IMG/VR virus record: IMGVR_UViG_3300045988_131075
Location: 1-29,670 of that record
Strand: one strand, 5' to 3'
DNA from: a virus
DNA length: 29,670 bases
Part shown: positions 7,196 through 29,670 of the stretch, in pieces
Layout: every line of letters starts with the position of its first letter
Numbering within the stretch: the first letter of the stretch is position 1
Notes under the pieces: model-generated
Told to the model about the DNA's origin: nothing
Database searches by the model: none
What the model saw: only the letters and a program-made list of their open reading frames with translations
Translations under genes and position numbers: made by a program

Positions 7196-7201
7196 AGACG
7201 T

Positions 7202-12455: not shown

Positions 12456-12498
12456 TCAAAAAATTTAATTTTAACCATCAACATAAATGATAAGAACA

Positions 12499-12711
12499 TC
12501 ATCTTTGGCTTTCAAACCGCTGACAGGCAAATCCCAGCACCCATTCTTCGCTTACGCCCAAAACATCACCATTCAGAGTCATGCGACCTTTGCGGTCTTT
12601 GAGATAGCGCCCGCAAGTGTTTTCATTTATCACTTCAATGCCGTTCCCCTCATAGAACATCAGTGCGCCTTTTACCAGACCAATCACATTTTTAACCATG
12701 CCCAAAGTCAT
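12499..12711 (-). CDS. Hypothetical protein of about 70 aa (MTLGMVKNVIGLVKGALMFYEGNGIEV...).
   Basis: AAAGAGG 8 nt upstream. Promoter TTGACT-17-TATACT. Ends 45 bp from the C6 terminator. Confidence 0.55.
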   Translation of the reverse strand: MTLGMVKNVIGLVKGALMFYEGNGIEVINENTCGRYLKDRKGRMTLNGDVLGVSEEWVLGFACQRFESQR

Positions 12712-12820
12712 TTTATCAACCTCTTTCGTTTTTAATGTCGTTCCCTTGGAACAATTATAGTATAGCACAAGGTGTAGCAAAAGTCAACTTAAATTTTGGG
12801 ATTACCAATAGATAAAATGT

Positions 12821-12867
12821 ATAAAAATTCGGCAGGATTTTGTGTATCCTGCCGAATTTTTTTTATT
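12821..12867. terminator. Bidirectional terminator ggcaggat-tttgtgt-atcctgcc followed by T8.
   Basis: Stem at 12831-12853, with A/T runs on both sides. Confidence 0.6.
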
Positions 12868-13057
12868 CTTCCCAACTTTCGATGACTTCGCCGGTCATTG
12901 CATCGATGATGTCAACCGAGAGGACGTTGTCTGCGTCCATGACCTTCTGCCCGAGGGCATATGCGTTTTCCTGTCCCGCGACAGACACTTCATAGCGATA
13001 GCGGTTGTTATCGCCAGCCTTGTAATTGTAGTAGTTGACAGAAACAATAAATGACAT
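12863..13057 (-). CDS. Hypothetical protein of 64 aa.
   Basis: RBS AAAGGGGA. Promoter TTGACA-16/17-TATAAT upstream (13090-13130). Confidence 0.6.
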   Translation of the reverse strand: MSFIVSVNYYNYKAGDNNRYRYEVSVAGQENAYALGQKVMDADNVLSVDIIDAMTGEVIESWEE

Positions 13058-13161
13058 TTGGCTTATCCCCTTTCTTTTTATACTCTTATTATACCATAGA
13101 TTCAGGATTTGTCAATAGGTTTTTGAAAAAAGTTTGAAAAAAAATAAGGGCGTTTCCGCCC

Positions 13162-13419
13162 TTATTCTTCATAAATAATAATATTATTTTGTAGCAGTTT
13201 CACGCGAGAATCTTCACAAAAGTGATAGGTAAAACTCACGGAGAGGTGTTTGAGAAATTCGCGTCTCCATGTGCGGGACTTCGGCTCTAATTCAAAGAGA
13301 ATGTAAAGCGTTTCTTCTAACCGGTCGAGGAAGTTTTCAGTGTCCGCGACGTTGAACTTACCCGCGAATTTCGGAATAGGATTAGAAGTCCCAACAGTAA
13401 TAATGTTGTAAGTTGTCAT
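13162..13419 (-). CDS. Hypothetical protein of 85 aa.
   Basis: Conserved leader plus AAGGAG 8 nt upstream. Promoter TTGACA-17-TATAAT (13440-13475 rc). Confidence 0.6.
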   Translation of the reverse strand: MTTYNIITVGTSNPIPKFAGKFNVADTENFLDRLEETLYILFELEPKSRTWRREFLKHLSVSFTYHFCEDSRVKLLQNNIIIYEE

Positions 13420-13506
13420 GGAAAAATCTCCTTTTCATTTGATGCTTTTATTATACATGATAGTGTGGAACTTGTCAATACTTAAAATAGAAAAAAGAGA
13501 AGTTTT

Positions 13507-13611
13507 TCAACTTCTCTTTTTCAGTTTCTTTTCTGCCCATTCAATGAGCGCACCCACGGCGATTGTACCGGTATAAATGAAAAGTAAAACTAAACCATCA
13601 TGTAGACTCAT
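13507..13611 (-). CDS. Alternative model, gene 2 of 2: a 34-aa single-TM peptide (MSLHDGLVLLFIYTGTIAVGALIEWAEKKLKKRS).
   Basis: GGAGG 9 nt upstream of the ATG. Same frame and stop as the ORF-track 76-aa ORF 13507..13737. Confidence 0.4.
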   Translation of the reverse strand: MSLHDGLVLLFIYTGTIAVGALIEWAEKKLKKRS

Positions 13612-13612
13612 T

Positions 13613-13741
13613 TTAATATTCCTCCACATACTCTGTAAAAACAAGCTCCCAGTCAGGGCCAAGATCCGGAGCTTTGCAGTATCGCGACTGTCGAATGTCA
13701 TGCTCATTAGTGATTTTGTTGATAAACTCGAATTCATACAT
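13613..13741 (-). CDS. Alternative model, gene 1 of 2: a 42-aa acidic protein (MYEFEFINKITNEHDIRQSRYCKAPDLGPDWELVFTEYVEEY).
   Basis: AAAGGAGA about 10 nt upstream of this ATG (14 nt for the ORF-track ATG in another frame). Its TAA is followed after 1 nt by the ATG of gene 2. Confidence 0.4.
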   Translation of the reverse strand: MYEFEFINKITNEHDIRQSRYCKAPDLGPDWELVFTEYVEEY

Positions 13742-13830
13742 TTTTTATTATCTCCTTTTCTTTACTGTACCAATAGTATAGCAGATAACAGGGTATTTGT
13801 CAATACCATTTATAAAAAAATGTACGAGGT

Positions 13831-14127
13831 TTAATCCTCGTACATTTCCATTAACGATTTGATTTTTTCGATTGTATTTTCAATTTCTTCTACATAGTCG
13901 GCCTGTTCCTCACTTGCGCGCATTGCCTGTTCATATGCGTCATAGATAGCTTCACACTGTTCGCGGGTGTAGTCTTCTTCTGGAGCGTGTTCCATGGTGA
14001 CGACTGCCGTCCAAGCGAGCGTTTCCTTATCGTCAAGGTCATCGGCTTTTTCCGTGGCAGTGGTAAGCTCATGTTCGAGGCGCGTCTTTTCGAGCGAGAG
14101 GGTCTTGAGAAAATCCTTGTTAGTCAT
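13831..14127 (-). CDS. Acidic coiled-coil protein of about 98 aa (MTNKDFLKTLSLEKTRLEHELTTATEKADDLDDKE...).
   Basis: The ORF-track start is the ATG inside the conserved leader (caaATGaaaaggaga). The real start is 8 codons downstream, after that RBS. Confidence 0.6.
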   Translation of the reverse strand: MTNKDFLKTLSLEKTRLEHELTTATEKADDLDDKETLAWTAVVTMEHAPEEDYTREQCEAIYDAYEQAMRASEEQADYVEEIENTIEKIKSLMEMYED

Positions 14128-14328
14128 TGCGGTGTATCTCCTTTTCATTTGATGCCTTTATCATACCACTTCTGGACTGAATGTCAATAGGTTTTTGAAA
14201 AAAATATTTATTCATCAGGGCTGTATAAATATTCATGTATAAATATTCATTTTCGGGTGTATAAAGGCGACTGGCATAATGCACAAAATGGTTTCAAAAT
14301 TTTTGTGCAATATAACTATTGCAAAACT

Positions 14329-14355
14329 CGGCGCGCTGCGACCCACAGCGCGCCG
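14329..14355. promoter_or_regulatory. Orphan copy (C7) of the module GC hairpin, cggcgcgc-N11-gcgcgccg. It has no associated promoter or terminator.
   Basis: Same stem as C5, with a different loop. Flanked by AT-rich tandem repeats. Confidence 0.55.
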
Positions 14356-14382
14356 GCCAAATGCATATGTATGATTATTCAT

Positions 14383-14440
14383 GTATATTCATTGTATATT
14401 CATTGTATATTCATTGTATATTCATTGTATATTTATTCAT
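14383..14440. repeat. Tandem 11-bp repeat gtatattcatt, 4 perfect copies plus a variant. A second pair of 14-bp repeats, tgtataaatattca x2, is at 14222-14249.
   Basis: Direct reading. Confidence 0.8.
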
Positions 14441-14450
14441 ACATAATATG

Positions 14451-14484
14451 CAAAAATAGAGAGAGACTTAATAAGCCTCTCTCC
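14451..14484 (-). terminator. Intrinsic terminator for the minus-strand operon: hairpin gagagag-N11-ctctctc, followed on the minus strand by a T-run.
   Basis: The stop codon of 14468..14830 lies in the hairpin loop. Confidence 0.55.
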
Positions 14485-14830
14485 ACACCTTGATTATTTC
14501 ATCATCTGCTATATCATCTGTGTCATTGTCGTTTATCCACAAAAGCAGAAAATCATTATCATCAATGGTCATATTCTCAACTTCCCATTGGTTGCCACGT
14601 TCGTCCAGTAGCGTGATGGTGTTACCATTTCGGGAAACGACCTCTGCACCGATAAAGCGTATGCTTCCTCTCTCTGTGCCAGCGCCACACCATTCATCTA
14701 ATGCGGTGAGGTCGTAGGACTGGGGCGCTTCCTCACAGGCTTCCGCGGTTGTGTGGTCGTGAAATCCGAAGAAAGACACGGAGAGAATGATGGCAATGGC
14801 CATGGTGATGATTTTGGAAACGTTTTTCAT
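14468..14830 (-). CDS. Secreted or membrane-anchored protein of 120 aa with an N-terminal signal/TM segment (MKNVSKIITMAIAIILSVSFFGF).
   Basis: AAGAGG 9 nt upstream of the ATG. Hydrophobic N-terminus followed by an acidic domain. Confidence 0.6.
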   Translation of the reverse strand: MKNVSKIITMAIAIILSVSFFGFHDHTTAEACEEAPQSYDLTALDEWCGAGTERGSIRFIGAEVVSRNGNTITLLDERGNQWEVENMTIDDNDFLLLWINDNDTDDIADDEIIKVWREAY

Positions 14831-14852
14831 TTTGTTTTACCTCTTTCTTACT

Positions 14853-14996
14853 TTATAGGTTAGTAGCGATAGTGACAACAGCAATAAGCATGAGCGTGCT
14901 TGAGACAGCTTTGCCTACATTCTTGCTATCTATGGCATAGACAAAATTATATGCGCTTATAGCGGTAAGCACAATAATAGCGGCAATGATAGACAT
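14853..14996 (-). CDS. 47-aa membrane peptide (MSIIAAIIVLTAISAYNFVYAIDSKNVGKAVSSTLMLIAVVTIATNL).
   Basis: GGGGAG 8 nt upstream of the ATG. Lies between two larger genes with about 25-bp spacers. Confidence 0.45.
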   Translation of the reverse strand: MSIIAAIIVLTAISAYNFVYAIDSKNVGKAVSSTLMLIAVVTIATNL

Positions 14997-15026
14997 GGCA
15001 TATGCTCCCCTCTTTGAGCGAGTGGG

Positions 15027-15500
15027 TTAAACCCACTCGCTGAATAGCTCACTGATGAAGTCATCGTGGACGTCATCAGGCAGTTGGTCGATGGTACACT
15101 CATAGGTGCTTACCACGGTAAGCGATGAGCCATTTTCAAGGTTCTCACGCTCAAACTTATCCCGTTCGCCAGATGAAAGAAAAAATGCGGTATAATCGTA
15201 AGTGTCTTCTCCATCATTGATGGAATAATCCACTACCTTAAAGCGCGTCTTGTTCCAGAGGTTCGCTATGATGGAAAGATCCATGGCCAGCTCTTCCTCG
15301 TGGCGAACAGCTTCGAGAGACGCCTTATACTTGCGCCATGCGGCTACCGTAAAGTCTCTTATGCCGCACCCGATAAGACAATGGTATTCCTCTAAGTCTT
15401 TGATAACCAGTTTGCGTCCCTCGCGCACCATTTCCCAAGCGTTTTCTGCCATTGCGTTGATGGTGACAGCATCATATTTATGCAAGCCCTGAATTTTCAT
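15027..15500 (-). CDS. Hypothetical protein of 157 aa.
   Basis: Long ORF in the operon and no overlapping alternative. Confidence 0.55.
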   Translation of the reverse strand: MKIQGLHKYDAVTINAMAENAWEMVREGRKLVIKDLEEYHCLIGCGIRDFTVAAWRKYKASLEAVRHEEELAMDLSIIANLWNKTRFKVVDYSINDGEDTYDYTAFFLSSGERDKFERENLENGSSLTVVSTYECTIDQLPDDVHDDFISELFSEWV

Positions 15501-15581
15501 TGTGTAGCCCTTCCCGCGCTTTTTGCGCTATCGTGTTATATGTAGGTATGTTCCCCTTGTGGGGAGTGAGGGCTTACGCCC

Positions 15582-15875
15582 TCACTTTGCAATCTTTGCA
15601 GTAACGGAAGCCGCACGCGGCGCGCCAGTCTTCTTGTACTTTTCAAAACACTCCGCATAGAGTTTCGGAGCTTTGTTGCGGAACATTACTGTATCGAGTG
15701 TTTCAGTAGCCTTGCCACCCTTGCCGACGATAACAGTAAACTTATTGTAAGTAAAAGTAACGCTTTCGCCGTCGGCTTCCTCGCGGGCTTCCGCCTTGAG
15801 CAATTCTAACTGTTCCTTGAGCGCATCTATCTGCGCGGAAAGCTCACACATCTTTTTAATTTTGTTGTTCGTCAT
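15582..15875 (-). CDS. Hypothetical protein of 97 aa with an N-terminal coiled coil (LSAQIDALKEQLELLKAEAREE).
   Basis: ORF. A weaker promoter (TTGTAT-17-TACCAT) upstream at about 15905-15945. Confidence 0.5.
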   Translation of the reverse strand: MTNNKIKKMCELSAQIDALKEQLELLKAEAREEADGESVTFTYNKFTVIVGKGGKATETLDTVMFRNKAPKLYAECFEKYKKTGAPRAASVTAKIAK

Positions 15876-15959
15876 TTTTGAATCCTCGTTTCATGTAATT
15901 TACCGTTCGGTGTTTCGCCGTTCAGCATGGTTACATGGTAGCAGATTCAGCCACGGAAT

Positions 15960-16280
15960 ACAATTGACGGATTGCACAAAGATTTGTTTTATACGGGGCG
16001 GGCTTTTGTGCAATCTACCGCCGGGCGGCACCCTTACATCATACCTTTGCATTTTTATTCATTCAAGAATGAATAAAACCTGCATAGAGGGGGGGTGTAT
16101 TTCGGGAAAAATAAATTTTTATTTATCGTTTTTTCTTTTGCCTGGTCAAAACGCAATCTAAATCAATTTTCAATTTCAGATTACGAAGAATAATTTAAAT
16201 TTATCATAATCAATTTTCAATTTCAAAATACGGTTTAAAACAATAAATCAATTTTCGATTTCAAATTACGACTTCTTTTT
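15960..16280. promoter_or_regulatory. Non-coding region between the two genome modules. It holds a perfect 11-bp inverted repeat gattgcacaaa/tttgtgcaatc (15970-15980 and 16005-16015), a 22-bp palindrome ttattcattc-aa-gaatgaataa (16055-16076) and a palindrome aaaaataaatttttattt. Three iterons aatcaattttc(a/g)atttcaNaWtacg lie at about 16160, 16209 and 16246.
   Basis: Direct reading. No ORF with an RBS apart from the small gene at 16266-16400. Confidence 0.6.
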
Positions 16281-16400
16281 TCTACCTCTTTTAGGCTTCT
16301 CACCCCACATAAGAGTGTATAATCCAGAAGTAGCAGAGTAAGTAGCCTTCTGCTGATACTTTTTAGCGACTGCCTTCAAGGGACTGAGTGGTTTCCGCAT
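16266..16400 (-). CDS. 44-aa basic peptide (MRKPLSPLKAVAKKYQQKATYSATSGLYTLMWGEKPKRGRKKKS).
   Basis: GGAGG 9 nt upstream of the ATG. TAA stop. Its 3' end overlaps the third iteron. Confidence 0.4.
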   Translation of the reverse strand: MRKPLSPLKAVAKKYQQKATYSATSGLYTLMWGEKPKRGRKKKS

Positions 16401-16424
16401 TTAATTTTTCCTCCATATATTCGA

Positions 16425-16745
16425 TTAATTTATCTTTATATTTACAACTATCAATATATCTATTAATAATTTTTCCATTAAGTGTTCTAATACATATTTG
16501 TATTTATTCAACTGATATTCTTCTTGTTCTTCTTTGGTGCTTAATTGAGCCTTTTCCGCGTCTGATAAAGGTCTGTAAGTAATCGTTCTTGACCCATTAT
16601 CCTTTTGCTCAATACGTATTGTTTTAAATAATTTCCAATCTCTTACAAAAGGGTCTTTATCTCTTGTAGTGTTAAAATATTCTTGTTCTAATCTAAATAT
16701 TACCGCGTCTATCCCTCTTACTTCAAAAGGCTGGTTCCATCCCAT
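16425..16745 (-). CDS. Hypothetical protein of about 106 aa (MGWNQPFEVRGIDAVIFRLEQEYFNTTRDKDPFVRDWKLF...).
   Basis: GGGAGG 9 nt before this ATG, inside the 3' end of the upstream gene. The ORF-track N-terminal extension has no RBS. Confidence 0.5.
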   Translation of the reverse strand: MGWNQPFEVRGIDAVIFRLEQEYFNTTRDKDPFVRDWKLFKTIRIEQKDNGSRTITYRPLSDAEKAQLSTKEEQEEYQLNKYKYVLEHLMEKLLIDILIVVNIKIN

Positions 16746-17115
16746 CTTCAATATCCTCCCATTCAAATGTTCCATCATCTAATTCATATACAAATGCTTG
16801 TTTATAAAATGATGAAACAATTCCATCATTTGCGATTCCTTTTGGACTATTTTTCACATCATGAAAACAATTATAAACAATTAATCCTTGCGTTTCATAT
16901 CGTGAAAAATCTACTGCCCTTCCCTCAAAATCATAATTATAAAATATGTTTAATAATAGCATACACTCATATTGTGCGATTGGCCATTTATTTAATTCTT
17001 TTTGCTAATTTACCATTTTTTGATATAATACCAAAAAGGCTTTTCTATATAACCATAAAAAAAGAAGTGATGCTACTAACGCACAACTCAATAATACAAT
17101 AAAAATAGTTTCCAT
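16723..17115 (-). CDS. N-terminally membrane-anchored protein. It is about 130 aa if the in-frame TAG at 17005-17007 is read as sense; otherwise it is a 36-aa TM peptide plus the ORF-track 79-aa ORF.
   Basis: GGAG 5 nt before the ATG at 17115. The ORF-track start at 16962 has no RBS. The two ORFs share a frame and are separated only by TAG. Confidence 0.45.
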
Positions 17116-17264
17116 AAATACTCCTTTTCTTTTTTCTTTTTTTTTTCTTATAATAATAATAAAATAAAAATAAAGAAATGTCAAATCGTAGCGTGATTGG
17201 GCAAAAGTTATTTGTTTTGTTAAAAAAATTTTTAAATATAAAAAGAAAAAATTTTAAATAAAAC

Positions 17265-17293
17265 TTGACAAAAAAAATTTTTTCGAGTATAAT
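17265..17293 (+). promoter_or_regulatory. Consensus promoter of the late (structural) operon: TTGACA(17265-17270)-17-TATAAT(17288-17293). GGAGG lies 6 nt before the ATG at 17318.
   Basis: Direct reading. An extremely AT-rich UP-like region lies upstream (17100-17260). Confidence 0.75.
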
Positions 17294-17317
17294 ATAAATA
17301 TAGACTGGAGGTAAAAA

Positions 17318-18373
17318 ATGATAAAACTTGATTATTCTTTACAAACTCCAGAAGAAAGAAATCAATTAGTCGAACAAATTTTGGCTGATAATCCAGATCC
17401 GCCTGAAAAGTATTTAGAAATTTTAGCAGACTATTTGGTTCTTTGTATGGAGAAACAAGAAAAAAAGGAGAAAAAATTATTAACTGATAATCGTATGGCT
17501 ACAGTTAATAAGCGTGAGACTTCTTTTGAAGGTCTTGTTTCCCAACTCGAAAATGGCGAAGATGGAATTTATAATTTAATTACAGATAATAGAAATACAA
17601 TATTTCAACCACATATTACAATTACAAAAAAAGATTTAGAAGAGATACCAAGTTTAAATTAGTTAAGAGAAGCCATTAATGTTTGGGAGGCTAAATTAAA
17701 AGTAACAGAAGGTAAAGATGCTTTTGTTATTAAAAAGGCTCTTATTGAAATGCGTAAAGATTAGTATGTTATGAAAAATGCTTATCGTCGTCCAATAGTG
17801 CCTACAAAATTAACCAGATCAAAGTCTTATATTCCATTAGATGATAAAACATTTATTTTTGATGATGATGGTTTTCCCATTCCTGATGGAATTAGTTTAT
17901 TAAGACCTGAAATATGTTCTGCGGTTTTATGTAATTATTCCCGATTAAAACAAGATAGTTGGGGCGAATATGATAAAGATTTATGGTATTTAATGGAGGA
18001 TTTTGATAAGCTTTGTGATAAAGCGTTAGCTAATTATCCTCTTTATGATAGAATCGTTGAATATAAAATTGATGGTTTACAAAATATTGACATTCAAGAG
18101 AAAATACAAATGGAATTTGGTATTAAGCACAGCCTTGAATATATTTCAAGTTTATGGCGTAATAAAATTCCAAAATTAATTGCTTCGACTGCGGAAGATG
18201 AATATTTAGATAATTATTATTTAAATGTTGAAAAAGGTAAATATAAAAAATGTAGTCGTTGTGGTAAAATAAAATTAGCTCATAATAAATATTTTAGTAA
18301 AAATAAAACAAGTAAAGATGGCTTTTATAGTATTTGTAAAAGTTGTCGAAATTCTAAGGTCAAAAAATCTTAA
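17318..18373 (+). CDS. First late gene, about 351 aa with 2 in-frame TAG codons (at 17660 and 17762). It has a C-terminal Zn-ribbon, CSRCG...AHNKY...CKSCRN, possibly an HNH-like nuclease or a regulator.
   Basis: ORF-track ORFs 17318..17662 and 17771..18373 are in the same frame and are separated only by TAG codons. TAA stop. Confidence 0.55.
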
Positions 18374-18422
18374 TATTGTCTTTTTGTTTATAATAAATAG
18401 TTGAAAGGAGAATATTTTATTT

Positions 18423-19610
18423 ATGGCTGAAACATATTATTGCGAAAAATGTAATCGTACAATGAATAGCACGGAATTTTATTCGTCTAATAATTTAGAA
18501 AAATATCCTAATGATGGTAAATTTCCTGTGTGCAAAAAATGTATGACAATGCACGTCGATAATTGGAATCCAGATACTTATTTATGGATTTTACAAGAAG
18601 CGGATGTTCCTTATGTTCCAGATGAATGGAATAAATTAATGGAAAAATATGGGCGCGATCCGCAGTCTATGACTGGTATGACAATTCTTGGACGTTATTT
18701 GTCAAAAATGAAACTCAAATAGTTTAAAGATTATCGTTGGAAAGATACAGAATTTTTATAGTAGATGGCGAATAATAAATTAGAGCAAACTATGAAGCGT
18801 CAAGGATATGATGCTCAATAGATTGCAACCGCTATTGAAAAAAGTTCTATTGCTATTCCAGGAGGAGAATTAAAAGAACCGGTTTATGCTCCACCACCTA
18901 ATGCCCCTACGGAAGATTATTTCGCACAATAGAGTGGTAAAGTGGAACAAGAATTAGACTTAACTGATGAAGACCGCACTTACTTAAGACTTAAATGGGG
19001 TAAAACTTATAAACCTGAAGAATGGGTTAAGCTTGAATAGTTATATGAAGAAATGATGGCTTCTTATGATATTCAAGGCGCCGGACATAAAGATACGCTA
19101 AAATTAATATGTAAGACATCTTTAAAGGCAAATCAATTGATCGATATTGGTGATATTGAAGGTTTCCAAAAGATGAGCAAAGTATACGATAGCTTAATGA
19201 AGTCTGGTAAATTTACTGCTGCTCAAAACAAAGCAGAATCAGGTGAATTTGTTGATTCAATTGGTGAATTAATTGAATTGTGTGAAAAAGAAGGATATAT
19301 TGAAAGATATTATGTTGAATAGCCACATGATAAAGTGGATTTAACTATTCAAGATATGCAACGTTATACTCGTACTCTTATTGAAGATGAAACTAATATT
19401 AGCACAATGGTAGAAAAAGCTTTACGCGAAAATGCTAAAGAAGATGAAGAGAAAGCAAAGAACGCGGAAAGCGATATCGTTGATGATGCTGATTTAAGTA
19501 TTGAAGAACTTGAAAAAACTATTAAAGATAGTGATTACGCGGATTTTGAGGAATTTAAAGAATAGGAGTCCGCGCAAGATAATGAGTTCTTATAGAGTTT
19601 GGATAAATAA
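18423..19610 (+). CDS. Late protein of about 395 aa with about 8 in-frame TAG codons and an N-terminal CxxC...CxxC Zn-ribbon. Its position immediately upstream of terL suggests the small terminase subunit; this is speculative.
   Basis: ORF-track pieces 18423..18722, 19053..19322 and 19335..19565 share one frame. Only TAG separates them. Ends with TAA at 19608-19610. Confidence 0.55.
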
Positions 19611-21349
19611 TGGCATTACAAGATTTGTTATAGTTAAGTGATAGCCGTAGAAAAATAGGTCTATCACCTGAGCGAGTAGAAGCGGTAATGCCTACTATCC
19701 GCAAATACGTTGCCTTTTGGAGAGAATATCCTGATTTATTTGTAGATTTTATGGTGCGAGGAAGACGCACTGAAATAAAAGATGGAGAATTTAATTTTTA
19801 TTTTTATTAGAGAGTATTTCTCCGTTCTGTTATGCGTTATTAGTATGTTTACGCGGTTTTCCCTCGTGCTTATTCTAAATCATTCTTGTCTGTTATGGCA
19901 TTAATGATTAGATGTATTTTATATCCTGGTGCGCACTTGTTCGTTACTTCTGGAGGTAAAGAGCAAGGTGCTAGTATTCTTCATGATAAAGTTCAAGAAA
20001 TATGTGAACTTGTTCCAAGCTTTAATCGAGAAATTGATTGGAGTCGAGGAAAAACTCTTGAAGGAAAAGATAAAGTTAGATATGTGTTTAAAAATGGTTC
20101 AGTTTTGGATAACCTCGCAGCTCGTGAAAGCACTCGTGGTCAGCGTCGTCATGGTGGATTAATGGAAGAATGTGTCGGTATTGATGATACTATTCTTCGT
20201 GAAGTTATTATTCCTGTTATGGCAATTTCTCGTAGAGCTAAAGATGGCACTACCAATGAACAAGAGCCATTAAATAAATCACAAATTTATATTACTACTG
20301 CTGGTTATAAGGGCACATTCCCTTATGATAGACTTATTGGTTTCTTAGTTCGTATGGTGACTTAGCCCGATCGTTGTATGGTATTAGGCGGAACATGGCG
20401 AACTCCTGTTGCAGTAGGATTACAAAGTAAAACATTTATTACTGACCAAAAGAATGAAGGAACTTATAATGAAGCTTCATTCGAACGTGAATATGAATCT
20501 AAGTGGTCAGGAACTGTTGAGGATGCTTTCTTTAATGGAGAGCATTTTGATAGAAATAGAAAACTATTATAGCCTGAATATGAAGCTTCTGGGCGCGCGG
20601 GCGCACAAGCTTATTATGTGCTTTCTGTAGATGTAGGTCGTAAAGGATGCGATTCAGTAGTTTGTGTATTTAAAGTAACACCACAAGCTCAAGGTCCAGC
20701 TATTAAATCATTAGTAAATATGTATACTATGTCAGATGACCATTTTGAAGATTAGGCTATTAAATTAAAGAAATTATTTTATAAATATAAAGCTAAAACT
20801 TTAGTTATAGATGGTAATGGTTTAGGTATTGGACTTTTAGATTATATGGTAAAATCTCAAAATGATGAAGATGGTGAATTTTTACCTGATTTTGGTGTTG
20901 AGAATGATGATGATGGATATTATAAAAAATATCGCACACCAAATACTCAATTTGATGCTATGTATGTTATTAAAGCAAATGCTCCAATAAATACTGAATG
21001 TCATGCTAATGCTCAGACTCAATTGCAAGCGGGTAAAGTAAAATTCTTAATAGATGAGAGAACAGCTAAAGAAAAATTATTAGCTACTCAAAAAGGTTCA
21101 AAAATGACTTCTGAACAAAGGGCAGATTATTTAAAACCATTTACTTTAACCTCCATATTAAAAGAAGAAATGATGAATTTACGCGAAGAAAATGAAGGTA
21201 TTAATATTATCCTAAAACAGGCAAATCGCGGAATTCGTAAAGATAAATTTTCGGCTTTTGAATATGGATTATATTATTTAAAACTTGAAGAAGATAAAAA
21301 GAAAAAACGTAAAAAGTTTAATGCGGCTGATTGGTGCTTTTTAAATTAA
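19610..21349 (+). CDS. terL: Terminase large subunit, about 579 aa with at least 6 in-frame TAG codons.
   Basis: ATPase motifs PRAYSKSF (Walker A-like) and GLMEECVGID (Walker B). Nuclease motifs YVLSVDVGRKGCDSVVCVFK and LVIDGNGLGIG. The pieces 19886..20365, 20378..20572 and 20846..21349 are in the same frame. The start overlaps the upstream TAA (TAATG). Confidence 0.8.
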
Positions 21350-21361
21350 GGAGGGTGGAAA

Positions 21362-21718
21362 ATGCGTGCTTCAAGAGGAGAAATTAAAATTGAAGAAATC
21401 TTAGAAGAAGCAGGACTACCTTTTAAAATGGAATATATCTTTCCAGATTTAAAAAGCCCAAGCGGGCGTCCGCTTCGTTTTGATTTTGTTATATTTGATG
21501 ATGATGGAAAAATTGATTTCATTATTGAGTATTAGGGAAAATAGCATTATGAAGCCAGTTCTAAATTTGGTGGAAAACGCGGTTTATACCAATAGCAATA
21601 TAATGATAATCAAAAAAGACGTTTTTGCGCTTTACATGATTTTAGATTAATAGAGATTCCATATACCGACGAAAACCTTATTTCTTATGATTATATAATG
21701 AAATTAGCAGGTTATTAA
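21362..21718 (+). CDS. DUF559/Vsr-like (PD-(D/E)xK) endonuclease of about 118 aa with 3 in-frame TAG codons.
   Basis: RFDFVIFDDDGKIDFIIEYQGKQHYE matches the hDF...hIEhDGxQH signature. GGAGG 7 nt before the ATG. TAA stop. Confidence 0.45.
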
Positions 21719-21731
21719 AGGAGGTGGAACT

Positions 21732-23381
21732 TTGGATACGCAAGATCGTAATGATTAGATTCACGCTAAAGGTTTTGATATTTATAATAGTCGTTATGAA
21801 TATAATTATAATGACACTATGGATTATGCCAATAGAAAAATAAAAGTTGGCACAAAAACTTTAGATGATGCTATTTTAAAACTTGGTGATTATAGTAAGA
21901 TTAGATACCCAGGTCAAACTCGTATTATCACGAAACCTGATGTGCTTCGCGCACTAGCAGAAAGAGATTTAAATGCTTTGCGATATATTTCTAATCTTTA
22001 TTATGATATAAGTGGTGTATATCAACGAGTTTGTAATTATGTTGCTTTTTTATACCGCTATGATTGGTATATTGCAGCTGAAACTTATGATGATAATGTA
22101 AAAGAAGAAAAAGTTTTAAAAGATTTTTATAGAATGTTGAATTATTTTGATAATAGTTATATTAAAAAGATTTGCGGAGATATTGCTTTACAAGTCGTTA
22201 AAAATGGATGCTATTATGGATATATAGTTCCTTCAGAGAAAAATCTAATTTTACAAGAATTGCCAGTTAGATATTGTAGAACACGTTATAGTGTAAATAA
22301 TACCCCAGTTGTCGAATTTGATATGCGATTTTTTGATACTTTTAGAGATATGAATTACCGTTTAAAAGTATTAAAATTATTCCCAGAAGAATTTGCTAAA
22401 GGTTATGTTTTATATAAGCAAGGAAAACTTGCTTTAGATGATGCGGTTGGATGCTAGCATACTGGTAGTTGGTATGTTCTTGAGCCAGAAAATTGTATTA
22501 AATTTAATATTAATAATAGTGATGTTCCTATTTTTGTAAATTCCATTCCTACTATTATGGATTTAGATGCAGCGCAAGATCTTGACCGCAAGAAACAAAT
22601 GTAGAAGTTGCTTAAAATTTTAGTCCAAAAACTCCCAATGGATAAAAATGGTGATTTGATATTTGATGTTGATGAAGCCAGAGATATCCATAATAATGCC
22701 GTTTAGATGTTATAGAGGGCTATTGGAGTAGATGTTTTAACTACATTTACTGATGTAGATTCTATTGATATGTCTGATAAAAATACTACTACAACGACAG
22801 ATGATTTAGCTAAAGTTGAACGTAGTGTTTATAATTCATTAGGTATTTCATAGAATTTATTTAATACTGATGGTAATATGGCTTTAGAAAAATCAGTGTT
22901 AAATGATGAATCTACAATAAGAAGTTTAATTTTATAGTTTAATATATTCTTTAATAGAATTATTGAAAAAAAGAGTAGTAATAAGAAATATAATTTTAGA
23001 TTTTATTTATTAGAAACTACTTAGAATAATTATCAAACACTTTCTAAAATGTATAAAGAACAAGCGCAAATGGGACAATCAAAGCTATTGTCTTAGATTG
23101 CTCTTGGACATTCATAGAGTTTTATTCTTAATGCAGCTCATTTTGAAAATGAGATTTTACATTTAAGTGAAATTATGATTCCTCCTCTTATGAGTTCTAC
23201 TATGGGTAGTGAAGATATTTTGGGTTTAAAAGATTCATCATCTAATAATAAAACTCAAAATAATTCAGGAAGTTCAGGTTCTGGAACTGCTAAAACTTCT
23301 AATGGCGAGGCAGGACGTCCGGAAAAACCTGATGATTAGAAAAGTGAAAAAACTATTCAAAATAAAGAAGCAATGAAATAA
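21732..23381 (+). CDS. Portal protein, about 549 aa with about 12 in-frame TAG codons. It probably starts at TTG, 7 nt after an AAAGGAGG.
   Basis: One continuous frame from 21732 to the TAA at 23379, with no TAA or TGA inside. The position after terL and the size fit a portal. The ORF-track sees only 21819..22457. Confidence 0.55.
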
Positions 23382-23390
23382 GGAGGATTT

Positions 23391-24968
23391 ATGAAACATA
23401 CAAGTATTAAATTAAATACACCTTGTGAGTTTATAAATATAACTCCTGTAAATCCTTTAATTTCTAAATGCCAAATTAAGGTTTGTTATGTAGATGATAA
23501 GCCTAATCGTAATAAAAGCGTAATTACTAAAGATGTAGCGACTGAGATGGCTAATAGTCTTCCAGGCAGTCCTATTGTTGGCTTTTTTAACGAAAATACC
23601 GAAGATTTTGAAGAACATAATAGGATAATTGAATTATCTAACGGCGAATTTAGAATGAGAGATAATACTCGCCCTTATGGTTTTGTTGATCTTGGAGCTA
23701 AAGTTTGGTTTTAGAAATTTTTGGATGATGGTGTTGCTGAACGTGAGTATTTAATGACTGAAGGTTATTTGTGGACTGGTTAGTATCCTGAATGTAAACG
23801 TGTAGTTGAGAAAGGGAATAATCATTCTATGGAGCTTGATGAAAAAACATTAAATGCTACGTGGGCAAAAGATAGTAATGGAAAGCCTTAGTTTTTTATT
23901 ATAAATAAGGCAATTATTTCTAAACTTTGTATTTTGGGAGAAGAAAATGAACCTTGTTTCGAAGGCTCCCAAATCAATGTGAATTTTTCATTCGATGATG
24001 GTTTTAAGAACACTTTGTTCTCCATGATGAATGAACTTAAAGAATTTATGAAAGAAGGAGGAGCCAAAGTGTTTACACAATACGCTGTTAATATTGGCGA
24101 CAATTTGTGGAATTCTCTTTATTCTTATATTGAGAATAAGTATCCTGTCGAACCAAAGAATTATTGTTCTGTTTATCGCATTGAAGGTGTTTGCGAAGAT
24201 GGTGAACAAAAGTTTGCTGTTTTGAAGAATAAACAGGATGAAAAATACTATCGTATGGATTTTTCTCTTGAAGCAGAGAATTTCGTTCCTTCTGATACTT
24301 TGATTGAAGTAACTGATTATGCTCCTGCGGCAGAGCCTCAGTTTGCTCTTAATGCTGTAGAAGAATTTGAAAATGAGTATGCTTCAAAAAAGAAAGCAGA
24401 AGAGGACAAAAATAATAAATCAAATAATCCTGACGGTGAAAATAAATCAGAGGGCAATGATAATAAAAAGAACCCTGATAATGGAGAACCCTCTAATAAG
24501 TCTGATAAAGGCGACAACGGTGAGAATGATGATGATAAAAAGAAAAAGAAAAATTATTCTCTTGAGGACGTTGTTGAATATACTGAACTTAAAGCTCAGT
24601 ATGATGAATTACAGACTAAATTCGCAGCTCTTGAAACTGAAAATAATAGCTTGAAAGAGCAAATTGCTCCACTTGCTGAATTTAAAAATGCTGCTGAGAA
24701 GAAAGATAAAGAAGATATGATTGCTAAATTCTATATGCTTTCTGATGAAGATAAGGCTGATGTTGTTGAAAATATTGATAAATATTCTCTTGATGATATT
24801 GAAGCTAAATTATCTGTTATTTGTGTTCGCAACAAGGTGAGTTTCGACCTTGACGAAAATAATAAGCCCAATGGTGCTACTACTTTTAATTTGAACGATA
24901 ATGGTTCAGAAGATGATGATATGCCCGCTTGGGTGAAGGCGGCTTTTGCTACCGCCAACAAAAATTAA
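23391..24968 (+). CDS. Scaffold-like protein of about 525 aa with 3 in-frame TAG codons. It has a globular N-terminal domain, then a coiled-coil and a highly charged K/D/E/N-rich C-terminal half.
   Basis: ORF-track pieces 23391..23714 and 23934..24968 are in the same frame. GGAGG RBS. Position between portal and capsid genes. Confidence 0.5.
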
Positions 24969-24985
24969 TAAGGAGGACATACTAA

Positions 24986-25903
24986 ATGTTTAAAGACTTT
25001 TTGAATAAGAATCTTCCTATTAAGTCTCAGGCAAAGTATGTTGAGTTTGGTTACGGTCAGGTCGAGCCTAATCACCTTTCCGCACAAAGAAATGCTCAAA
25101 TCTATGCTCAACTTCCTGCCAATAAAGACATTGAGATTCTTGAAAACGGTCAGTTTGTAAAGTATGACTATGCTGCTAATGGTAATGGTATCGGCGAAGT
25201 CAACTTCACTGGCGAAGGCGAATGGATGCTCGTTTATAACGAGATTAAGCTTTATCGTGATCATTATGATGGCAGTAAGCAGTGGGATTGCGAATTTGCT
25301 ATGATTAAAGATGACTATCAGGCTCGTGTTTATAGCCCTTATGATTGGGAGCATACCGAGGTTGAATATGGTGGTCGTTTCTGGAACGGCGTTGATGAAA
25401 AGGGTCAAACCTATAAGTTAATCAATTAGACTGTTTCCGCAGATCAGGGCTTAAAGACTGTAACTATTGCTGGTCGTGTTTATGATGTCGATGAAGCCGG
25501 CAAGTTTACTTATGATGGTAATGACTATACTCTTGATAATAATCATCAGGTTGCTAATGTTCCTGTAAAGTATTACTATGATAAGCTTCTTACTGATGTT
25601 CCTGATATGTATGAAATGAATTGGACTAATGATCCATATCATAAGTTAGGTATCTATCATGAGAAGTTCATGGAATCTGGCACTTCTATGGTTCCTCGTG
25701 TATTTAAGACCATGATTGGTGATCTTTATACTACTAATATGATTAATGAAGAGACTCTTGCTGTTGGAGATAAGCTTTCTCCTTCTGCTGCTACAAAGGG
25801 TATTCTTAGCAAAACTGGCGACGATTCAATGACCTGGCAGGTTGTTAAGGTTTATACTATGCCTGATGGTCAAAAGGGCGTCAAGGTAATGCGTATTAAG
25901 TAA
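24986..25903 (+). CDS. Structural protein of about 305 aa (1 in-frame TAG), possibly a head decoration or minor capsid protein.
   Basis: AAGGAGG 8 nt before the ATG. The pieces 24986..25429 and 25607..25903 are in the same frame. Confidence 0.5.
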
Positions 25904-25920
25904 GAAAGGAGAAAAGGATA

Positions 25921-27027
25921 ATGTTAGATAAAAATAATTTAATTGCTCTTATGAAGCAAGTTGCTAAGGCTGATCCTTCTGCTCCTGTTGCTTATAGTTA
26001 TGAGGGAAAAAATCTTAGTTATGAAGCCTTAAATGAAACTCTTCGTAATGAAATGAATGAGTTGGCTGGTACTTACGCTCTTTATCGTGAAAATAAGAAT
26101 CTTATTTTCTCTATGATTGAGCAGACTCTTGATGAGGTTCTTCCTAAGAAAGTTATTCAGCAATATGATCAGTTTGCTGAGGTTAAAACTTTCGCTCAGG
26201 GTGATAAGCCTATTTTCCGTCGTCCTCTTAATAATCGTGCTCGTGCTAAGCAGTTTGTAACTCGCGTTGGTCTTGCTGGTATTTATGAAGTCTTCAAGCT
26301 CGGACCTAAAGAGAATGAAGCCTTTGAGGTACGTACTAGCGCTATCGGCGGAGCTGCTCAGATTGGCTTCGAAGAGTTCCTTGATGGTCGTGTTGATTTC
26401 GGTGAAGTAACCAAGATCATCATGGATGGTATGGATGAACTTATTTATAAAGAAGTTGCTGCCGCTCTTAGATCTTCTATCAATCAGCTTCCTCCTGCTA
26501 ACCGCGTTGCGGCTGCCGGATTTGATGAAGCTGCTATGGATCGTTTGATCACTATTGCTTCTGCTTATGGTACTCCTACCATTTATTGTACTTATGAGTT
26601 CGCTGTTAAGATGATTCCTCATGAGGCTTGGAGATATACTGAAGCTATGAAGAACGAGCTTTGGAATAATGGTCGTCTTGCTACTTACAAGGGCACTAAG
26701 GTTATTATTCTTGAGCAGGGCTTTGAAGATGAAACCAATACTCGTAAGGTTATTGATCCTGGTTATGCTTGGGTTATTCCTACGGGCGCTGATGGTAAGC
26801 CTGTAAAGATTGCTTTCGAAGGTGGCACTATTGTTGACGAGTTCAATAATTATGATCGTTCTCGTGAGATTCAGGTTTACAAGAAGGTTGGCGTAGTTTG
26901 TATGCTTGCTAATAACATCTGTGCTTATGTTGATACTTCACTTCTCGGTCAGATGTATACTTGGAATTATGATGGAGTTACCGGTAAGGTTATCACTTAT
27001 GATGGTCGCCTTGATGGTACTGTCTAA
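25921..27027 (+). CDS. Putative major capsid protein, 368 aa, with no TAG codons.
   Basis: Uninterrupted ORF with RBS AAGGAGAAAAGG and a TAA stop, followed immediately by a strong terminator. Position after the scaffold gene. Function inferred from gene order and size only. Confidence 0.55.
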   Translation: MLDKNNLIALMKQVAKADPSAPVAYSYEGKNLSYEALNETLRNEMNELAGTYALYRENKNLIFSMIEQTLDEVLPKKVIQQYDQFAEVKTFAQGDKPIFRRPLNNRARAKQFVTRVGLAGIYEVFKLGPKENEAFEVRTSAIGGAAQIGFEEFLDGRVDFGEVTKIIMDGMDELIYKEVAAALRSSINQLPPANRVAAAGFDEAAMDRLITIASAYGTPTIYCTYEFAVKMIPHEAWRYTEAMKNELWNNGRLATYKGTKVIILEQGFEDETNTRKVIDPGYAWVIPTGADGKPVKIAFEGGTIVDEFNNYDRSREIQVYKKVGVVCMLANNICAYVDTSLLGQMYTWNYDGVTGKVITYDGRLDGTV

Positions 27028-27045
27028 TTTAATATAAATTATTCC

Positions 27046-27090
27046 ATGGGGAGAAGGGATTAAACTCCCTCTCCCCATATTTTTGTTTTA
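27046..27090 (+). terminator. Intrinsic terminator after the capsid gene: hairpin ggggagaaggga-ttaaac-tccctctcccc, then a T-rich run atatttttgtttta.
   Basis: Direct reading. Confidence 0.7.
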
Positions 27091-27113
27091 TGAGTAAAAG
27101 GAGAAATTGAATA

Positions 27114-27707
27114 ATGATTAATAATGAAGATATTTATAATGTAAAAAATAGAAGCACTAGTGTAGTTGTTTATACTATTCCTGATACTAATTTGCGTCGT
27201 GAATTTGCGCCTGGTGAAACTAAGCGTATTCCATTTGGTGAGCTAGAGAAATTAACTTATCAGGCAGGCGGCCGCGAATTAATTGCTAATTTTTTACAAA
27301 TTTTAGAGCCAGAAGTAACTCATACTCTTAATGTTCATACTGAACCTGAATATAATATGTCAGAGCAACAAGTTGCTGATTTAATTCTTAATGGCTCATT
27401 AGATGCTTTCTTAGATGCTCTTGATTTTGCTCCTATTGGAATTATTGACTTAATCAAGAATTTATCTGTTAACCTTCCTATTACTGATATTAATAAGCGT
27501 AGAGCTTTGAAGGAAAAAACTGGGTTTGATGTTGATAAAGCTATTGCTAATGATATCGCTAGTAAAGAAGAAGATACTATCGTAGAGAAAGAACCGGCAG
27601 CTAAGCGTCGTGTAGTAAGAGAAGAACCTACTACTCAAGGTCGTCGTACAAGCGGTTCTGGATATAAAGTAATTAATAAAACCGAGGAAACTTCCTCCAA
27701 GAAATAA
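27114..27707 (+). CDS. Structural or head-associated protein of 197 aa with a basic C-terminal tail.
   Basis: Uninterrupted ORF with RBS AAAGGAGA and a TAA stop. Confidence 0.55.
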   Translation: MINNEDIYNVKNRSTSVVVYTIPDTNLRREFAPGETKRIPFGELEKLTYQAGGRELIANFLQILEPEVTHTLNVHTEPEYNMSEQQVADLILNGSLDAFLDALDFAPIGIIDLIKNLSVNLPITDINKRRALKEKTGFDVDKAIANDIASKEEDTIVEKEPAAKRRVVREEPTTQGRRTSGSGYKVINKTEETSSKK

Positions 27708-27726
27708 TTTATAGGAGGGCGATTAA

Positions 27727-28299
27727 GTGGGAACATTATTCTCAACTGTTTATAATCGCTTTCTAAACAAGGTTACTGATGATATGTATCTGGAATTGAC
27801 TCCTGAAGATACTCTAAGAGATTTATAGAATCTTATAATAGATGCTATTCCTGGATTTGAATTTCCGCGAAAAAATCTTTTAGATTATAATTTAGATGTC
27901 GCTACTATTAATGAATCTGACGCTATGCCGGATGATTTTATTGTAGGAACAGTATGGGGGGAACTTCCAGAACCGGGTGAAGAACCTCAAGTTTTAGTTG
28001 ATAGATCCAGTTTTAATTGTGATCTAACTGAAGAAGAAATTAATATTTTAGCTATTTTAATGATGTGCGGTTGGACGCAAAGACAAGTCACTTCAATTGA
28101 GAATACTCGAATGAAATATAGTGGCTCTGATTTTAAATTTACTTCTTAGGCAAATCATCTATCAAAGCTATTGAATTTATTAGGTGAATGCCAAAGACAA
28201 TCTCACCATATGTAGCGTTTATATAAACGCAGACGTTTAAATAATAAAGGTGAGTATGAATCTAATTGGGATGTATTTAAAAGTCGATATGATTACTAA
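27727..28299 (+). CDS. Head-tail adaptor or connector-like protein of about 190 aa with 3 in-frame TAG codons. GTG start.
   Basis: AGGAGG 8 nt before the GTG. ORF-track 27925..28149 is its in-frame middle part. TAA at 28297. Confidence 0.45.
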
Positions 28300-28597
28300 A
28301 TATAATTTTGATATTCCAATAGAGAGTATAAAAGTAAATTGTTTGCGCTTAACCAATCAATTATGGAAATTAATTCCAATGCGCGAAAATAATGAAGATT
28401 GGCATAAATAGCTAGAAACTGTTATAAATGAAATTGTGGGGTTTAGTGTGATTTTTAACGCTGAACCCCTTTATTTATAGTTATTAAATAAACTTGAGGG
28501 ATTGTAGAATCAAGATACTGATTTTAATTTTTATCGTAAGACTGTGTTTGAAACGATTAGTCTTTTATAGGAGATAAATTATGGCGTCAGGGTTTGA
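28289..28597 (+). CDS. Possible small late protein of about 102 aa with 4 in-frame TAG codons. It overlaps both neighbours.
   Basis: It is the only stop-free frame (under TAG read-through) filling the 280-bp gap. No clear RBS. Confidence 0.3.
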
Positions 28598-29645
28598 TTA
28601 TAGTAGTAAGCAACCTTTTAGATTATAGCAAGGTCGCTTAGGAATTTATGATAAGCCACCCTTTAAAGGTAGCCCTGTTGAAGGCGTTAATTATATGGCG
28701 GTTCGGCTCGGTCAGATGGGCGGAAATCGCCAACAAGAGCGTATGATTTTATCTAAGCGTAGAAGTTTAGATAGAGCAGTATGGAATTCATACCAAGCCG
28801 CAGAAATTATTAAATAGGATGCGGAATATAAAAAACCTATTAGGTGTTTGATTAATCCTAACAAATTGAAATAGGATTATGATGATAAGATTTTGTCTGT
28901 TGGAAATGAATATTAGTTTAAACCAGGAGATATTTTTGAATGGTGTGGAACTAATACCTATTGGATTTGTTATCTTTAGGATTTGACTGAATTAGCTTAT
29001 TTTAGAGGAGATATTAGAAAATGCTCTTATAAAATAAATTGGGTAGATGAGGGAGAGAAAAAGTCTACTTATGCAGCAATTCGCGGTCCTGTAGAAACGA
29101 AAATTAATTATATTCAAAAACATGAAATTAGTGTAGATATTCCTAATTATTCATTAAATATTTTGATGCCTAAGAATAAAGATACTTTGAGTTATTTTAA
29201 GCGGTATACAAAATTTTATTTAGATAGTTAGGATGATGGAGATAATTTAATTTGTTGGCGTGTTGAAGCTGTAGATTCTATAAGTATGCCTGGTATTTTA
29301 GAAGTCAATGCGACTGAATATTATATTAATGAGTAGGAAGATAATTTAAATGATAAGACTGTTGGTTCTTTAATTGCGGAACCGATTGATCCGAATCCTA
29401 CGACAACTGATATTATAGGAGAAACATTTATCTTTCCAAAGAAAAGTTATACTTATTATTTTGATGGTGAAGTTGTTTTAGAATGGAGCATAAAGAATAA
29501 TAAGAAGTTGCCGGTTTCTTTAAAAATTATTAAAGAAGCAAAAAAACCAACAGTTGAAATAAGTTGGACTTCTGGATATAGCGGATAGTTCGATTTATTA
29601 TATGGAGATTATAAAAAAACGATAATTGTTCAATCATTGTTTTAA
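28581..29645 (+). CDS. Late structural protein of about 354 aa with about 10 in-frame TAG codons.
   Basis: GGAG 7 nt before the ATG. ORF-track 28983..29231 is an in-frame internal piece. A single frame is free of TAA and TGA up to the TAA at 29643. Confidence 0.5.
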
Positions 29646-29670
29646 GGAGAAAAAGGTGTTATGAAGATTG

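Follow-up and report, generated by a model that had tools for sequence, protein, structure and literature searches.

Reassignment of the amber codon TAG to glutamine (Gln) in phages was reportedly described by Ivanova et al. in 2014. TAG recoding in phages was later surveyed by Borges et al. (bioRxiv 2021.08.26.457843), who proposed that its role is to delay the late and lysis genes, and the change from TAG to Gln has been confirmed by metaproteomics in crAss-like phages (Peters et al. 2022, PMC9523058). The closest described genome to the DNA considered here is that of phAss-1 (OQ749652, 136 kb), which together with its relatives was described by Babkin et al. in 2023 (PMC10607447) and is listed at NCBI under 'Caudoviricetes code 15 clade'. 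We have analysed the 29,670-nucleotide (nt) stretch formed by positions 1–29,670 of IMG/VR virus record IMGVR_UViG_3300045988_131075 (the window), and in particular its late region, which runs from ~17.3 to ~29.7 kb on the plus strand. We conclude with high confidence that this DNA belongs to an SPbeta-like tailed phage of the human gut, ~190 kb in genome size, which reads UAG as glutamine instead of stopping there. TAG to Gln recoding by phages that bring their own suppressor tRNAs dates back to 2014, and for this phage group it was described in 2023 (PMC10607447); the phage adds a member to the known recoded phages, and no new principle.

Both phAss-1 and the phage studied here are human-gut phages of siphovirus type with an SPbeta/Enterococcus-EF1-like head module, and both use TAG for Gln in the terminase large subunit (TerL), the portal and other virion genes. 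The early block on the left of the window is homologous to 127–134 kb of phAss-1, whose late region has a lower GC content than the rest of its genome, the same direction of difference as in the window. A further likeness is that no dedicated synthetase is reported for phAss-1 (PMC10607447). The differences are nonetheless substantial, in that the portals are only 37% identical, this genome is ~190 kb rather than 136 kb, and the early block here is transcribed divergently from the late operon, unlike in phAss-1. Megablast of both window halves against the phage collection gave no match, phAss-1 included. Members of the proposed genus Phassvirus (phAss-1, BK046881, BK025033) are 80–86% identical, and the phage falls short of the genus on this test; its sequence places it in the broad phAss-1 group, outside the proposed genus.

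The clades surveyed by Borges et al. (Lak, crAss-like, Jade, Sapphire, Agate, Garnet, Amethyst and Topaz) share with this phage the concentration of recoding in structural genes, a phage-encoded suppressor tRNA, stops dominated by TAA, low GC content, and close relatives that use the standard code. Its size fits the clades of 150–210 kb, and no release-factor gene, release factor 2 (RF2) included, or synthetase gene was found in the ~90 kb examined, the rest of the genome being unread. The code-15 crAss-like phages (PMC9523058) also have TAG to Gln recoding in the late genes of gut phages, there shown at the protein level, but they are an unrelated, podovirus-like lineage with Bacteroidota hosts, whereas the head module here is SPbeta-like. 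The same gene families in the same order (YonG, TerL (YonF), portal, YonD, YonB, YomW/V/U and tape measure) are found in Bacillus prophage SPbeta, Enterococcus phage EF1, Bacillus phage PBC2, Brevibacillus phage Sundance and Lactococcus phage PMBT69, although SPbeta and the cultured relatives use the standard code and their portals are TAG-free.

Under the standard code, only short open reading frames (ORFs) are found on the plus strand to the right of 17.3 kb. With stops limited to TAA and TGA, the same strand resolves into 12 back-to-back genes spanning 17318–29645, whose starts were set by ribosome-binding sites and by the gene calls of identical public contigs. The features of this region are listed below; the family matches are to PHROG unless otherwise indicated, and the profile searches were run with TAG translated as glutamine (Q).

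17265–17293, plus strand: predicted sigma-70-type promoter (TTGACA-17-TATAAT, a consensus match), directly upstream of gene 1
17318–18373, plus strand: gene 1, 351 amino acids, two TAGs (17660 and 17762); phrog_5767, E 9e-55, residues 31–347
18423–19610, plus strand: gene 2, YonG-like, 395 amino acids, nine TAGs; phrog_3314, E 6e-59, residues 2–341
19610–21349, plus strand: TerL, 579 amino acids, six TAGs; phrog_2, residues 43–438, unbroken across five TAG sites
21362–21718, plus strand: homing-endonuclease-like ORF, 118 amino acids, three TAGs; phrog_9084 (E 1e-26) and phrog_559
21732–23381, plus strand: portal, 549 amino acids, TTG start, 11 TAGs; phrog_2739, E 1e-80, residues 80–553 of a 556-residue query begun at 21711
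23391–24968, plus strand: YonD-like and coiled-coil-containing, possibly a scaffold protein, 525 amino acids, three TAGs; phrog_3313, E 7e-41, and Pfam PF27290 YonD_N
24986–25903, plus strand: head-module protein (from the PHROG profile search), 305 amino acids, one TAG (25427)
25921–27027, plus strand: YonB-like putative major capsid protein, 368 amino acids, no TAG; phrog_4088, E 1e-58, and Pfam PF27364 YonB
27114–27707, plus strand: 197-amino-acid protein, no TAG
27784–28299, plus strand: 171-amino-acid protein, three TAGs; gene calls of equal length on public contigs
28256–28597, plus strand: 113-amino-acid protein, four TAGs; the sole late gene with a TGA stop
28581–29645, plus strand: 354-amino-acid protein, eight TAGs; phrog_31155
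29661–29670, plus strand: first 10 nt of the following gene, which full contigs show to be YomW-like, truncated by the window end

The 12 genes hold 50 in-frame TAG codons (2, 9, 6, 3, 11, 3, 1, 0, 0, 3, 4 and 8 in gene order), and their lack of in-frame TAA and TGA follows by construction of the ORFs. Out of frame, the same genes contain ~400 TAA, ~366 TGA and ~145 TAG, and because the in-frame stops are all TAG (50 of 50) even though TAA and TGA are commoner out of frame, neither chance nor decay accounts for the pattern. Eleven of the genes stop on TAA and one on TGA, TAG terminates none of the ~39 genes of the window, and the TAA and TGA stops are kept across strains. The PHROG matches of the portal, TerL, gene 1, gene 2 and the YonD-like gene each run in a single stretch over the TAG sites, the remaining genes match their families over the whole length, and full-length homologues were found. 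The preliminary description of this DNA had proposed an amber-recoded late operon with genes ending on TAA, occasionally TGA, and had named full-length alignment across the TAG positions of TerL and the portal as evidence that would support it; both are borne out, and the coordinates that it gave for these two genes are exact. Its statement that every long late gene is split by TAG holds for ten of the 12, the capsid-like gene and the gene at 27114–27707 being free of TAG, while its figure of two to six ORF fragments per gene was too low, as there are up to 12 pieces, with 11 TAGs in the portal and nine in gene 2.

Gene calls on more than 20 independent public contigs have equal full lengths (351, 395, 579, 118, 520 and so on, in amino acids); that is, the gene caller of the public collection already yields the late genes full-length. 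In the index of public assemblies, 1068 blocks list the exact capsid-like protein, and the contigs bearing it have a modal size of ~190–195 kb; the phage is therefore very common in the gut and no oddity of a single assembly. One of these public sequences, ERZ28663842 scaffold_25 (189,664 bp), is 99.97–100% identical to window positions 5171–14426 and 16208–25264. Annotation under table 11 shreds the terminase, portal and tail genes of this very common phage.

Four independent comparisons agree in indicating that TAG encodes Gln in the late genes, as the preliminary description had thought probable. When eight strains with 94–97% nucleotide identity were aligned codon by codon, the codons opposite the TAGs of the window were TAG 336 times, CAG 20 times and CAA 12 times, and conversely the window has CAG (15) or CAA (14) opposite TAGs of the other strains. 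The 61 differences seen at the TAG sites of late genes thus consist entirely of CAG and CAA; a single mutation could also turn TAG into seven further sense codons, and none of these occurs. A broader comparison used 80 IMG/VR relatives (gene 1 identity 70–100%) and four genes, namely gene 1, gene 2, TerL and the portal. The TAG sites of the window are occupied in these relatives by TAG (36%), Gln (35%), Glu (10%), Lys (5%) or Asp (4.5%), and the control CAA sites by Gln (62%), Glu (9%), TAG (7%) or Lys (6%). In relatives lacking TAG from these four genes, 16 of the 28 sites where the window has TAG are occupied by Q, for which the background frequency is 4%. Finally, the conserved portal columns 371, 399, 459 and 533, which lie in the contexts GIS-x-NLF, LIL-x-F, GHS-x-S and PDD-x-KSE, are Q in the cultured standard-code phages EF1, PBC2, Sundance and PMBT69. 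The homing-endonuclease-like ORF points the same way: two of its TAGs fall in the motif EY-TAG-GK-TAG-HY, where paralogues of the same phage that lack TAG have EFDGEQHF and EYNGKQHY, so that G-x-TAG-H corresponds to G-x-Q-H and supports TAG as Gln.

ARAGORN finds no tRNA in the window, nor within 10 kb either side of 13 strain loci or in the syntenic 25 kb of phAss-1. It had been expected that a suppressor tRNA would lie beyond the window, and a tRNA(CUA) is indeed present on an IMG/VR contig of the same species, 3300045988_126669 (161 kb), at L050:14400–14489 (contig position ~123.4 kb). This contig is 94–98% identical to window positions 139–3215 and carries gene 1 at 63.7–64.8 kb with 99% amino acid identity. 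The tRNA(CUA) lies within an array of ~20 tRNAs on the early-gene strand, ~41 kb past the left end of the window, where tRNA-Val(UAC) and tRNA-Tyr(GUA) are its neighbours. Its score against the Rfam tRNA model is 57.8 bits (gathering score 29), and a tRNA(CUA) occupies the same position in all eight related contigs scanned at the locus. Two alleles that look unrelated but have identical flanks are seen, the commonest being 90 nt long with a variable arm of ~21 nt, and the other, found in some strains, 73 nt long (L055:7688–7760 and L056:13580–13652). Both have the anticodon loop CUCUAAA, a U1 that is unpaired with position 72, G73 and G2:C71, and G10 was also noted; U1, G73, G2:C71 and G10 are features that we take to resemble the identity elements of E. 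coli tRNA-Gln. In phAss-1, homologues of both forms (a long-arm tRNA(CUA) of 91 nt and a short one of 75 nt, with 77–78% identity to the two alleles) stand in tandem beside NrdD, and phAss-1 has three tRNA(CUA) loci in all, two of them beside NrdD, compared to the one seen in this phage.

A bacterial parallel is E. coli supE, a tRNA-Gln with a CUA anticodon that reads UAG as Gln in competition with release factor 1 (RF1). However, supE is a chromosomal mutant allele of partial efficiency, whereas here the tRNA is phage-borne, one of its alleles has a long arm, and it would serve dozens of essential codons.

The first gene of the tRNA array (L050:2968–3038, the same as L045:12790–12860) is tRNA-like, scoring 46 bits in Rfam, and has a 6-nt anticodon loop. 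This loop reads CUUCAA in the contig nearest to the window, whereas the other scanned relatives have AUUUAA. Reading these loops as U33-NNN-A37 would give the anticodons UCA (which reads UGA) and UUA (which reads UAA), both directed at stop codons, although ARAGORN assigns none. A 'tRNA-SeC(tca)' in two relatives was considered as a TGA suppressor and rejected, as it has a poor acceptor stem and is missing from the closest contig.

The remainder of the window is transcribed from the opposite strand and contains the following features.

1–16200, minus strand: TAG-free, GC-rich early block of ~25 small ORFs, with many terminators and repeated intergenic modules
8452–8904, minus strand: AbrB/MazE-like regulator (PF04014 on gene calls), with paralogues at 2255–2632 and 4668–5099
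16723–17115, minus strand: membrane-anchored protein of 130 amino acids, GC content 0.30, one TAG (17007)

The 25 ORFs of the early block contain no in-frame TAG and stop on TAA (13) or TGA (12), never on TAG, and these stops are kept in up to 14 strains. In-frame TAG thus occurs 50 times per ~3,900 late codons and not once per ~3,050 codons of the GC-rich early ORFs, in agreement with the contrast between the halves noted earlier, and this despite 63 uses of Gln in the early block. The GC content of the block is 0.40–0.48, and its GC content at third codon positions (GC3) is 0.53, compared to 0.22 in the late genes. Its Gln codons are 75% CAG, whereas the late genes use CAA for 54%, TAG for 29% and CAG for 17%. 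Codon preferences for Leu, Arg, Pro and Gln are reversed between 1–16200 and 16400–29670, and beyond the left end of the window the GC content returns to 30–40%, such that the early block is an island.

The early block is also rich in signals resembling those of a bacterial host. It contains 87 promoter-like sites with matches to a sigma-70-type consensus, against 38 ± 7 in shuffled sequences, and 40 terminator-like hairpins against 17 ± 4. There are 15 perfect (12/12) promoter matches, 12 of them on the minus strand, and ~27 near-consensus sigma-70 promoters, with a TG-extended -10 element in most of the minus-strand matches. Promoter-like sites are not enriched in the late region (63 against 60 ± 8), where the promoter at 17265–17293 is the sole 12/12 match on the plus strand. 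The SPbeta-like head module, the AbrB-like regulator and the Gram-positive-style extended -10 promoters suggest a Bacillota host without proving it.

The preliminary description had held that the early half needs no recoding, and while this is so for the 25 GC-rich ORFs, it does not extend to the gene at 16723–17115. This gene lies behind a divergent 11/12 promoter match at 17184–17156 and shows swaps between TAG and CAA among strains at codons 31 and 36, so it is recoded like the late genes. TAG also turns up within two accessory ORFs of the minus strand. Codon 23 of the ORF at 9667–10011 reads TAG here and in two near-identical contigs, whereas seven strains have TGG and one has TGA. At codon 23 of the ORF at 10772–11125 the window has TGG and the two near-identical contigs have TAG; L018 and the window differ at only three positions in 9,256 nt, and this is one of them. 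These TAGs look like ordinary nonsense polymorphisms in accessory genes and not Gln codons; an alternative for these Trp/stop sites is a suppressor inserting Gln for Trp. Outside the window, several early-strand genes carry TAG, including neighbours of the tRNA array, and these are mostly low in GC content; the TAG-free state is therefore a property of the GC-rich island and not of all non-late genes.

Exactly on the GC boundary, at 16156–16270, there are three direct repeats of ~30 nt (AATCAATTTTCAATTTCA...), and the strains diverge there; exact-protein look-ups for the two ORFs closest to the early/late junction gave only three contigs, one a public scaffold with a run of N at these repeats and another a contig that ends within them. 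A chimeric assembly at the GC step (~16.2 kb) was considered and rejected, because six contiguous contigs cross the repeats into the same left sequence, and contig 3300045988_126669 is continuous from gene 1 through the early block to the tRNA array.

These findings suggest how the phage may express its genome. If the host uses the standard code, its RNA polymerase and ribosomes would express the early block immediately, since a block without TAG can be read under either code and is thus expressible by an unmodified host from the start of infection. Until the suppressor tRNA accumulates, the TAG-bearing genes would give truncated products; once it has done so, the phage-encoded tRNA(CUA) would decode the 50 late TAGs and allow full-length terminase, portal and other proteins to be made. 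Termination would be independent of TAG throughout, all genes stopping on TAA or TGA. The need for tRNA(CUA) to build up would delay packaging and head assembly, and hence the making of virions, in line with what Borges et al. proposed. A requirement for TAG as sense in ten of the 12 late genes and the TAG-free state of the 25 ORFs in the promoter-dense block fit this code-switch model. The sequence comparisons show the recoding, its meaning as Gln, a tRNA(CUA) in a conspecific genome and the contrast of the two blocks in TAG and codon usage; we infer the timing itself, the charging enzyme and any effect on RF1.

A more elaborate proposal, which we put forward tentatively and think rather unlikely, is that the genome is written in two 'dialects', a TAG-free immediate-early island of 16 kb and an AT-rich remainder that needs the phage's tRNAs, tRNA(CUA) among them, and that these act together as a translational timer. 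The island, with its host-like codon usage (GC3 0.53) and ~27 consensus sigma-A promoters, would be expressed directly, as opposed to the remainder with its GC3 of 0.22. Gene 1 lies behind a perfect host-type promoter and has two amber codons that are kept, which would fit a translational gate; its mRNA could be made at once, and its protein only after the suppressor had built up. In the same vein, the two interchangeable tRNA(CUA) alleles at one locus could be an adaptation to different host charging systems.

Alternative explanations have to be weighed both for what TAG means and for what its use achieves. The fragmentation of the genes under table 11 is what would be seen if the TAGs were true stops in an operon that had decayed or become pseudogenised, or if they were artefacts of assembly or sequencing. 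However, the frames are broken 50 times by TAG alone and never by TAA or TGA, the structure is identical in dozens of independent assemblies, and the proteins are 57–99% identical among relatives, with Gln opposite the TAG sites; the ORF structure, the public gene calls, the strain swaps and the IMG/VR relatives refute true stops, to which we attach a negligible probability. We also think it very improbable that TAG is sense but stands for another amino acid (Ser, Tyr, Leu or Trp), delivered by a type-II-like tRNA(CUA) whose synthetase ignores the anticodon. Long variable arms in bacteria belong to Ser, Leu and Tyr tRNAs, and seryl-tRNA synthetase recognises the long variable arm and not the anticodon. 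The 90-nt allele, with its ~21-nt arm, G73 and G2:C71, stands beside a tRNA-Tyr(GUA) that is also 90 nt long, and TAG alternates with TGG in the two early ORFs described above. Against this, neither TCG, TAT/TAC, TTG nor TGG is found among the 61 replacements, albeit each is one mutation away; the TAG-free relatives have Q at 57% of the sites and E, D or K at the remainder; the substitution profile of the TAG sites is like that of the CAA sites; and the unpaired U1 of the tRNA(CUA) is unlike the G1:C72 of Ser, Leu and Tyr tRNAs. The misfit of the long arm with a classical tRNA-Gln is what leaves a small probability for another amino acid.

It is harder to choose between a code switch and recoding that is real but has no switch in infection, either because the host itself reads TAG as Gln or because the suppressor acts from the start; we regard such an absence of a switch as unlikely, and in the same measure doubt that TAG arose neutrally through AT pressure and codon capture and plays no part in timing. 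These alternatives draw on the observations that TAG is never a stop anywhere in the window, the early block included, that TAG and CAG or CAA interchange freely between strains, and that the TAG load follows low GC content and not strictly gene class, with TAG-bearing genes flanking the tRNA array. Borges et al. link TAG loss to low GC content. Moreover, the IMG/VR relatives form a gradient from zero to more than ten TAGs per gene; this and the free exchange of TAG with CAG or CAA weigh against strict site-specific regulation, as neutral codon capture under AT pressure would also give both. On the other side, the phage brings its own tRNA(CUA), which argues that the host has none. We know of no bacterial host that uses code 15. 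The promoter-dense early block is TAG-free over its ~3,050 codons in spite of its 63 Gln, and the capsid protein, the most abundant of the virion, avoids TAG in the window.

Several points thus weigh against our own reading, in which TAG is Gln and the recoding serves a switch from early to late expression. The Gln assignment comes from comparative genomics, the tRNA(CUA) was found on a conspecific contig and not on the window's own, and the ~21-nt variable arm of its commonest allele is unusual for a tRNA-Gln. The early and late timing is deduced from promoters and gene content alone, the presence of TAG-bearing early-strand genes outside the window means that the split is not strictly one of late versus early, and with TAG, CAA and CAG swapping freely the single sites look like neutral synonymous changes and not fixed regulatory switches. 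An abundant lineage with a sharply bounded TAG-free block and a TAG gradient is a possible system for tests of both recoding timing and stop capture. Among the IMG/VR relatives L127–L138, L095 and L098–L100, some lineages have no TAG in gene 1, gene 2, TerL or the portal and others have one to three per gene, and in the zero-TAG lineages of the family TAG stops are only rare. From TAG-poor to TAG-rich, these relatives form a graded series from the standard code to heavy recoding.

The late genes are those of an SPbeta-like siphovirus head and tail module. A direct Pfam search of the late proteins gave almost no matches. Gene 1 is present in all 17 close IMG/VR relatives (at least 97% amino acid identity) with two or three TAGs in each, and it has a Cys4 zinc ribbon at its C-terminus. 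The PHROG label of phrog_5767 is that of a sigma factor, and we have dropped this assignment as unsupported: no sigma match was found in Pfam or NCBIfam even at a permissive E-value, there was no sequence match in PDB, and an AlphaFold (AF2) model with a predicted local distance difference test (pLDDT) score of 65.6 had no Foldseek match in PDB at E<=0.001. PF27269 YonG_N is found on gene calls of other contigs that equal gene 2 in length. The TAGs of TerL are polymorphic with CAA and CAG between strains, and its sequence had no match in a search of PDB. Two PHROG families of 'unknown function', phrog_15503 (245 amino acids, E 1e-61) and phrog_24618 (230 amino acids, E 2e-51), match its N and C halves respectively, and these may be table-11 fragments of TAG-split TerL from recoded phages.

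The homing-endonuclease-like ORF is inserted between TerL and the portal and has a DUF2726 match under the Pfam cutoff; elsewhere in the genome there are longer endonuclease paralogues with zinc-finger repeats, some of them TAG-bearing and some TAG-free. The TTG start of the portal lies 7 nt after AGGAGG, and among cultured phages tblastn places it closest to those of Enterococcus, Bacillus, Brevibacillus and Lactococcus with genomes of 120–170 kb, at 24–29% identity. The single TAG of the head-module gene at 24986–25903 is replaced by CAG in all eight strains compared, and the capsid-like gene has a higher GC content (0.40) and prefers CAG. Downstream of the window, public contigs continue with YomW, YomV and YomU (PF27256, PF27211 and PF27173) and a tape measure protein of ~2,800 amino acids.

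In the early block, an intergenic module of ~115–140 nt is present in five to six copies (1092–1206, 3284–3488, 5487–5691, 8041–8176, 10102–10240 and 12318–12456), each with a minus-strand consensus promoter and a GC-rich bidirectional terminator hairpin. Three of the copies also have a perfect plus-strand promoter (at 3343, 5546 and 8058), and these could drive short RNAs antisense to the early operons. Irregular tandem repeats of AAAATTGCGAGAGTGTG-like units occupy positions 1–154, where the window begins.

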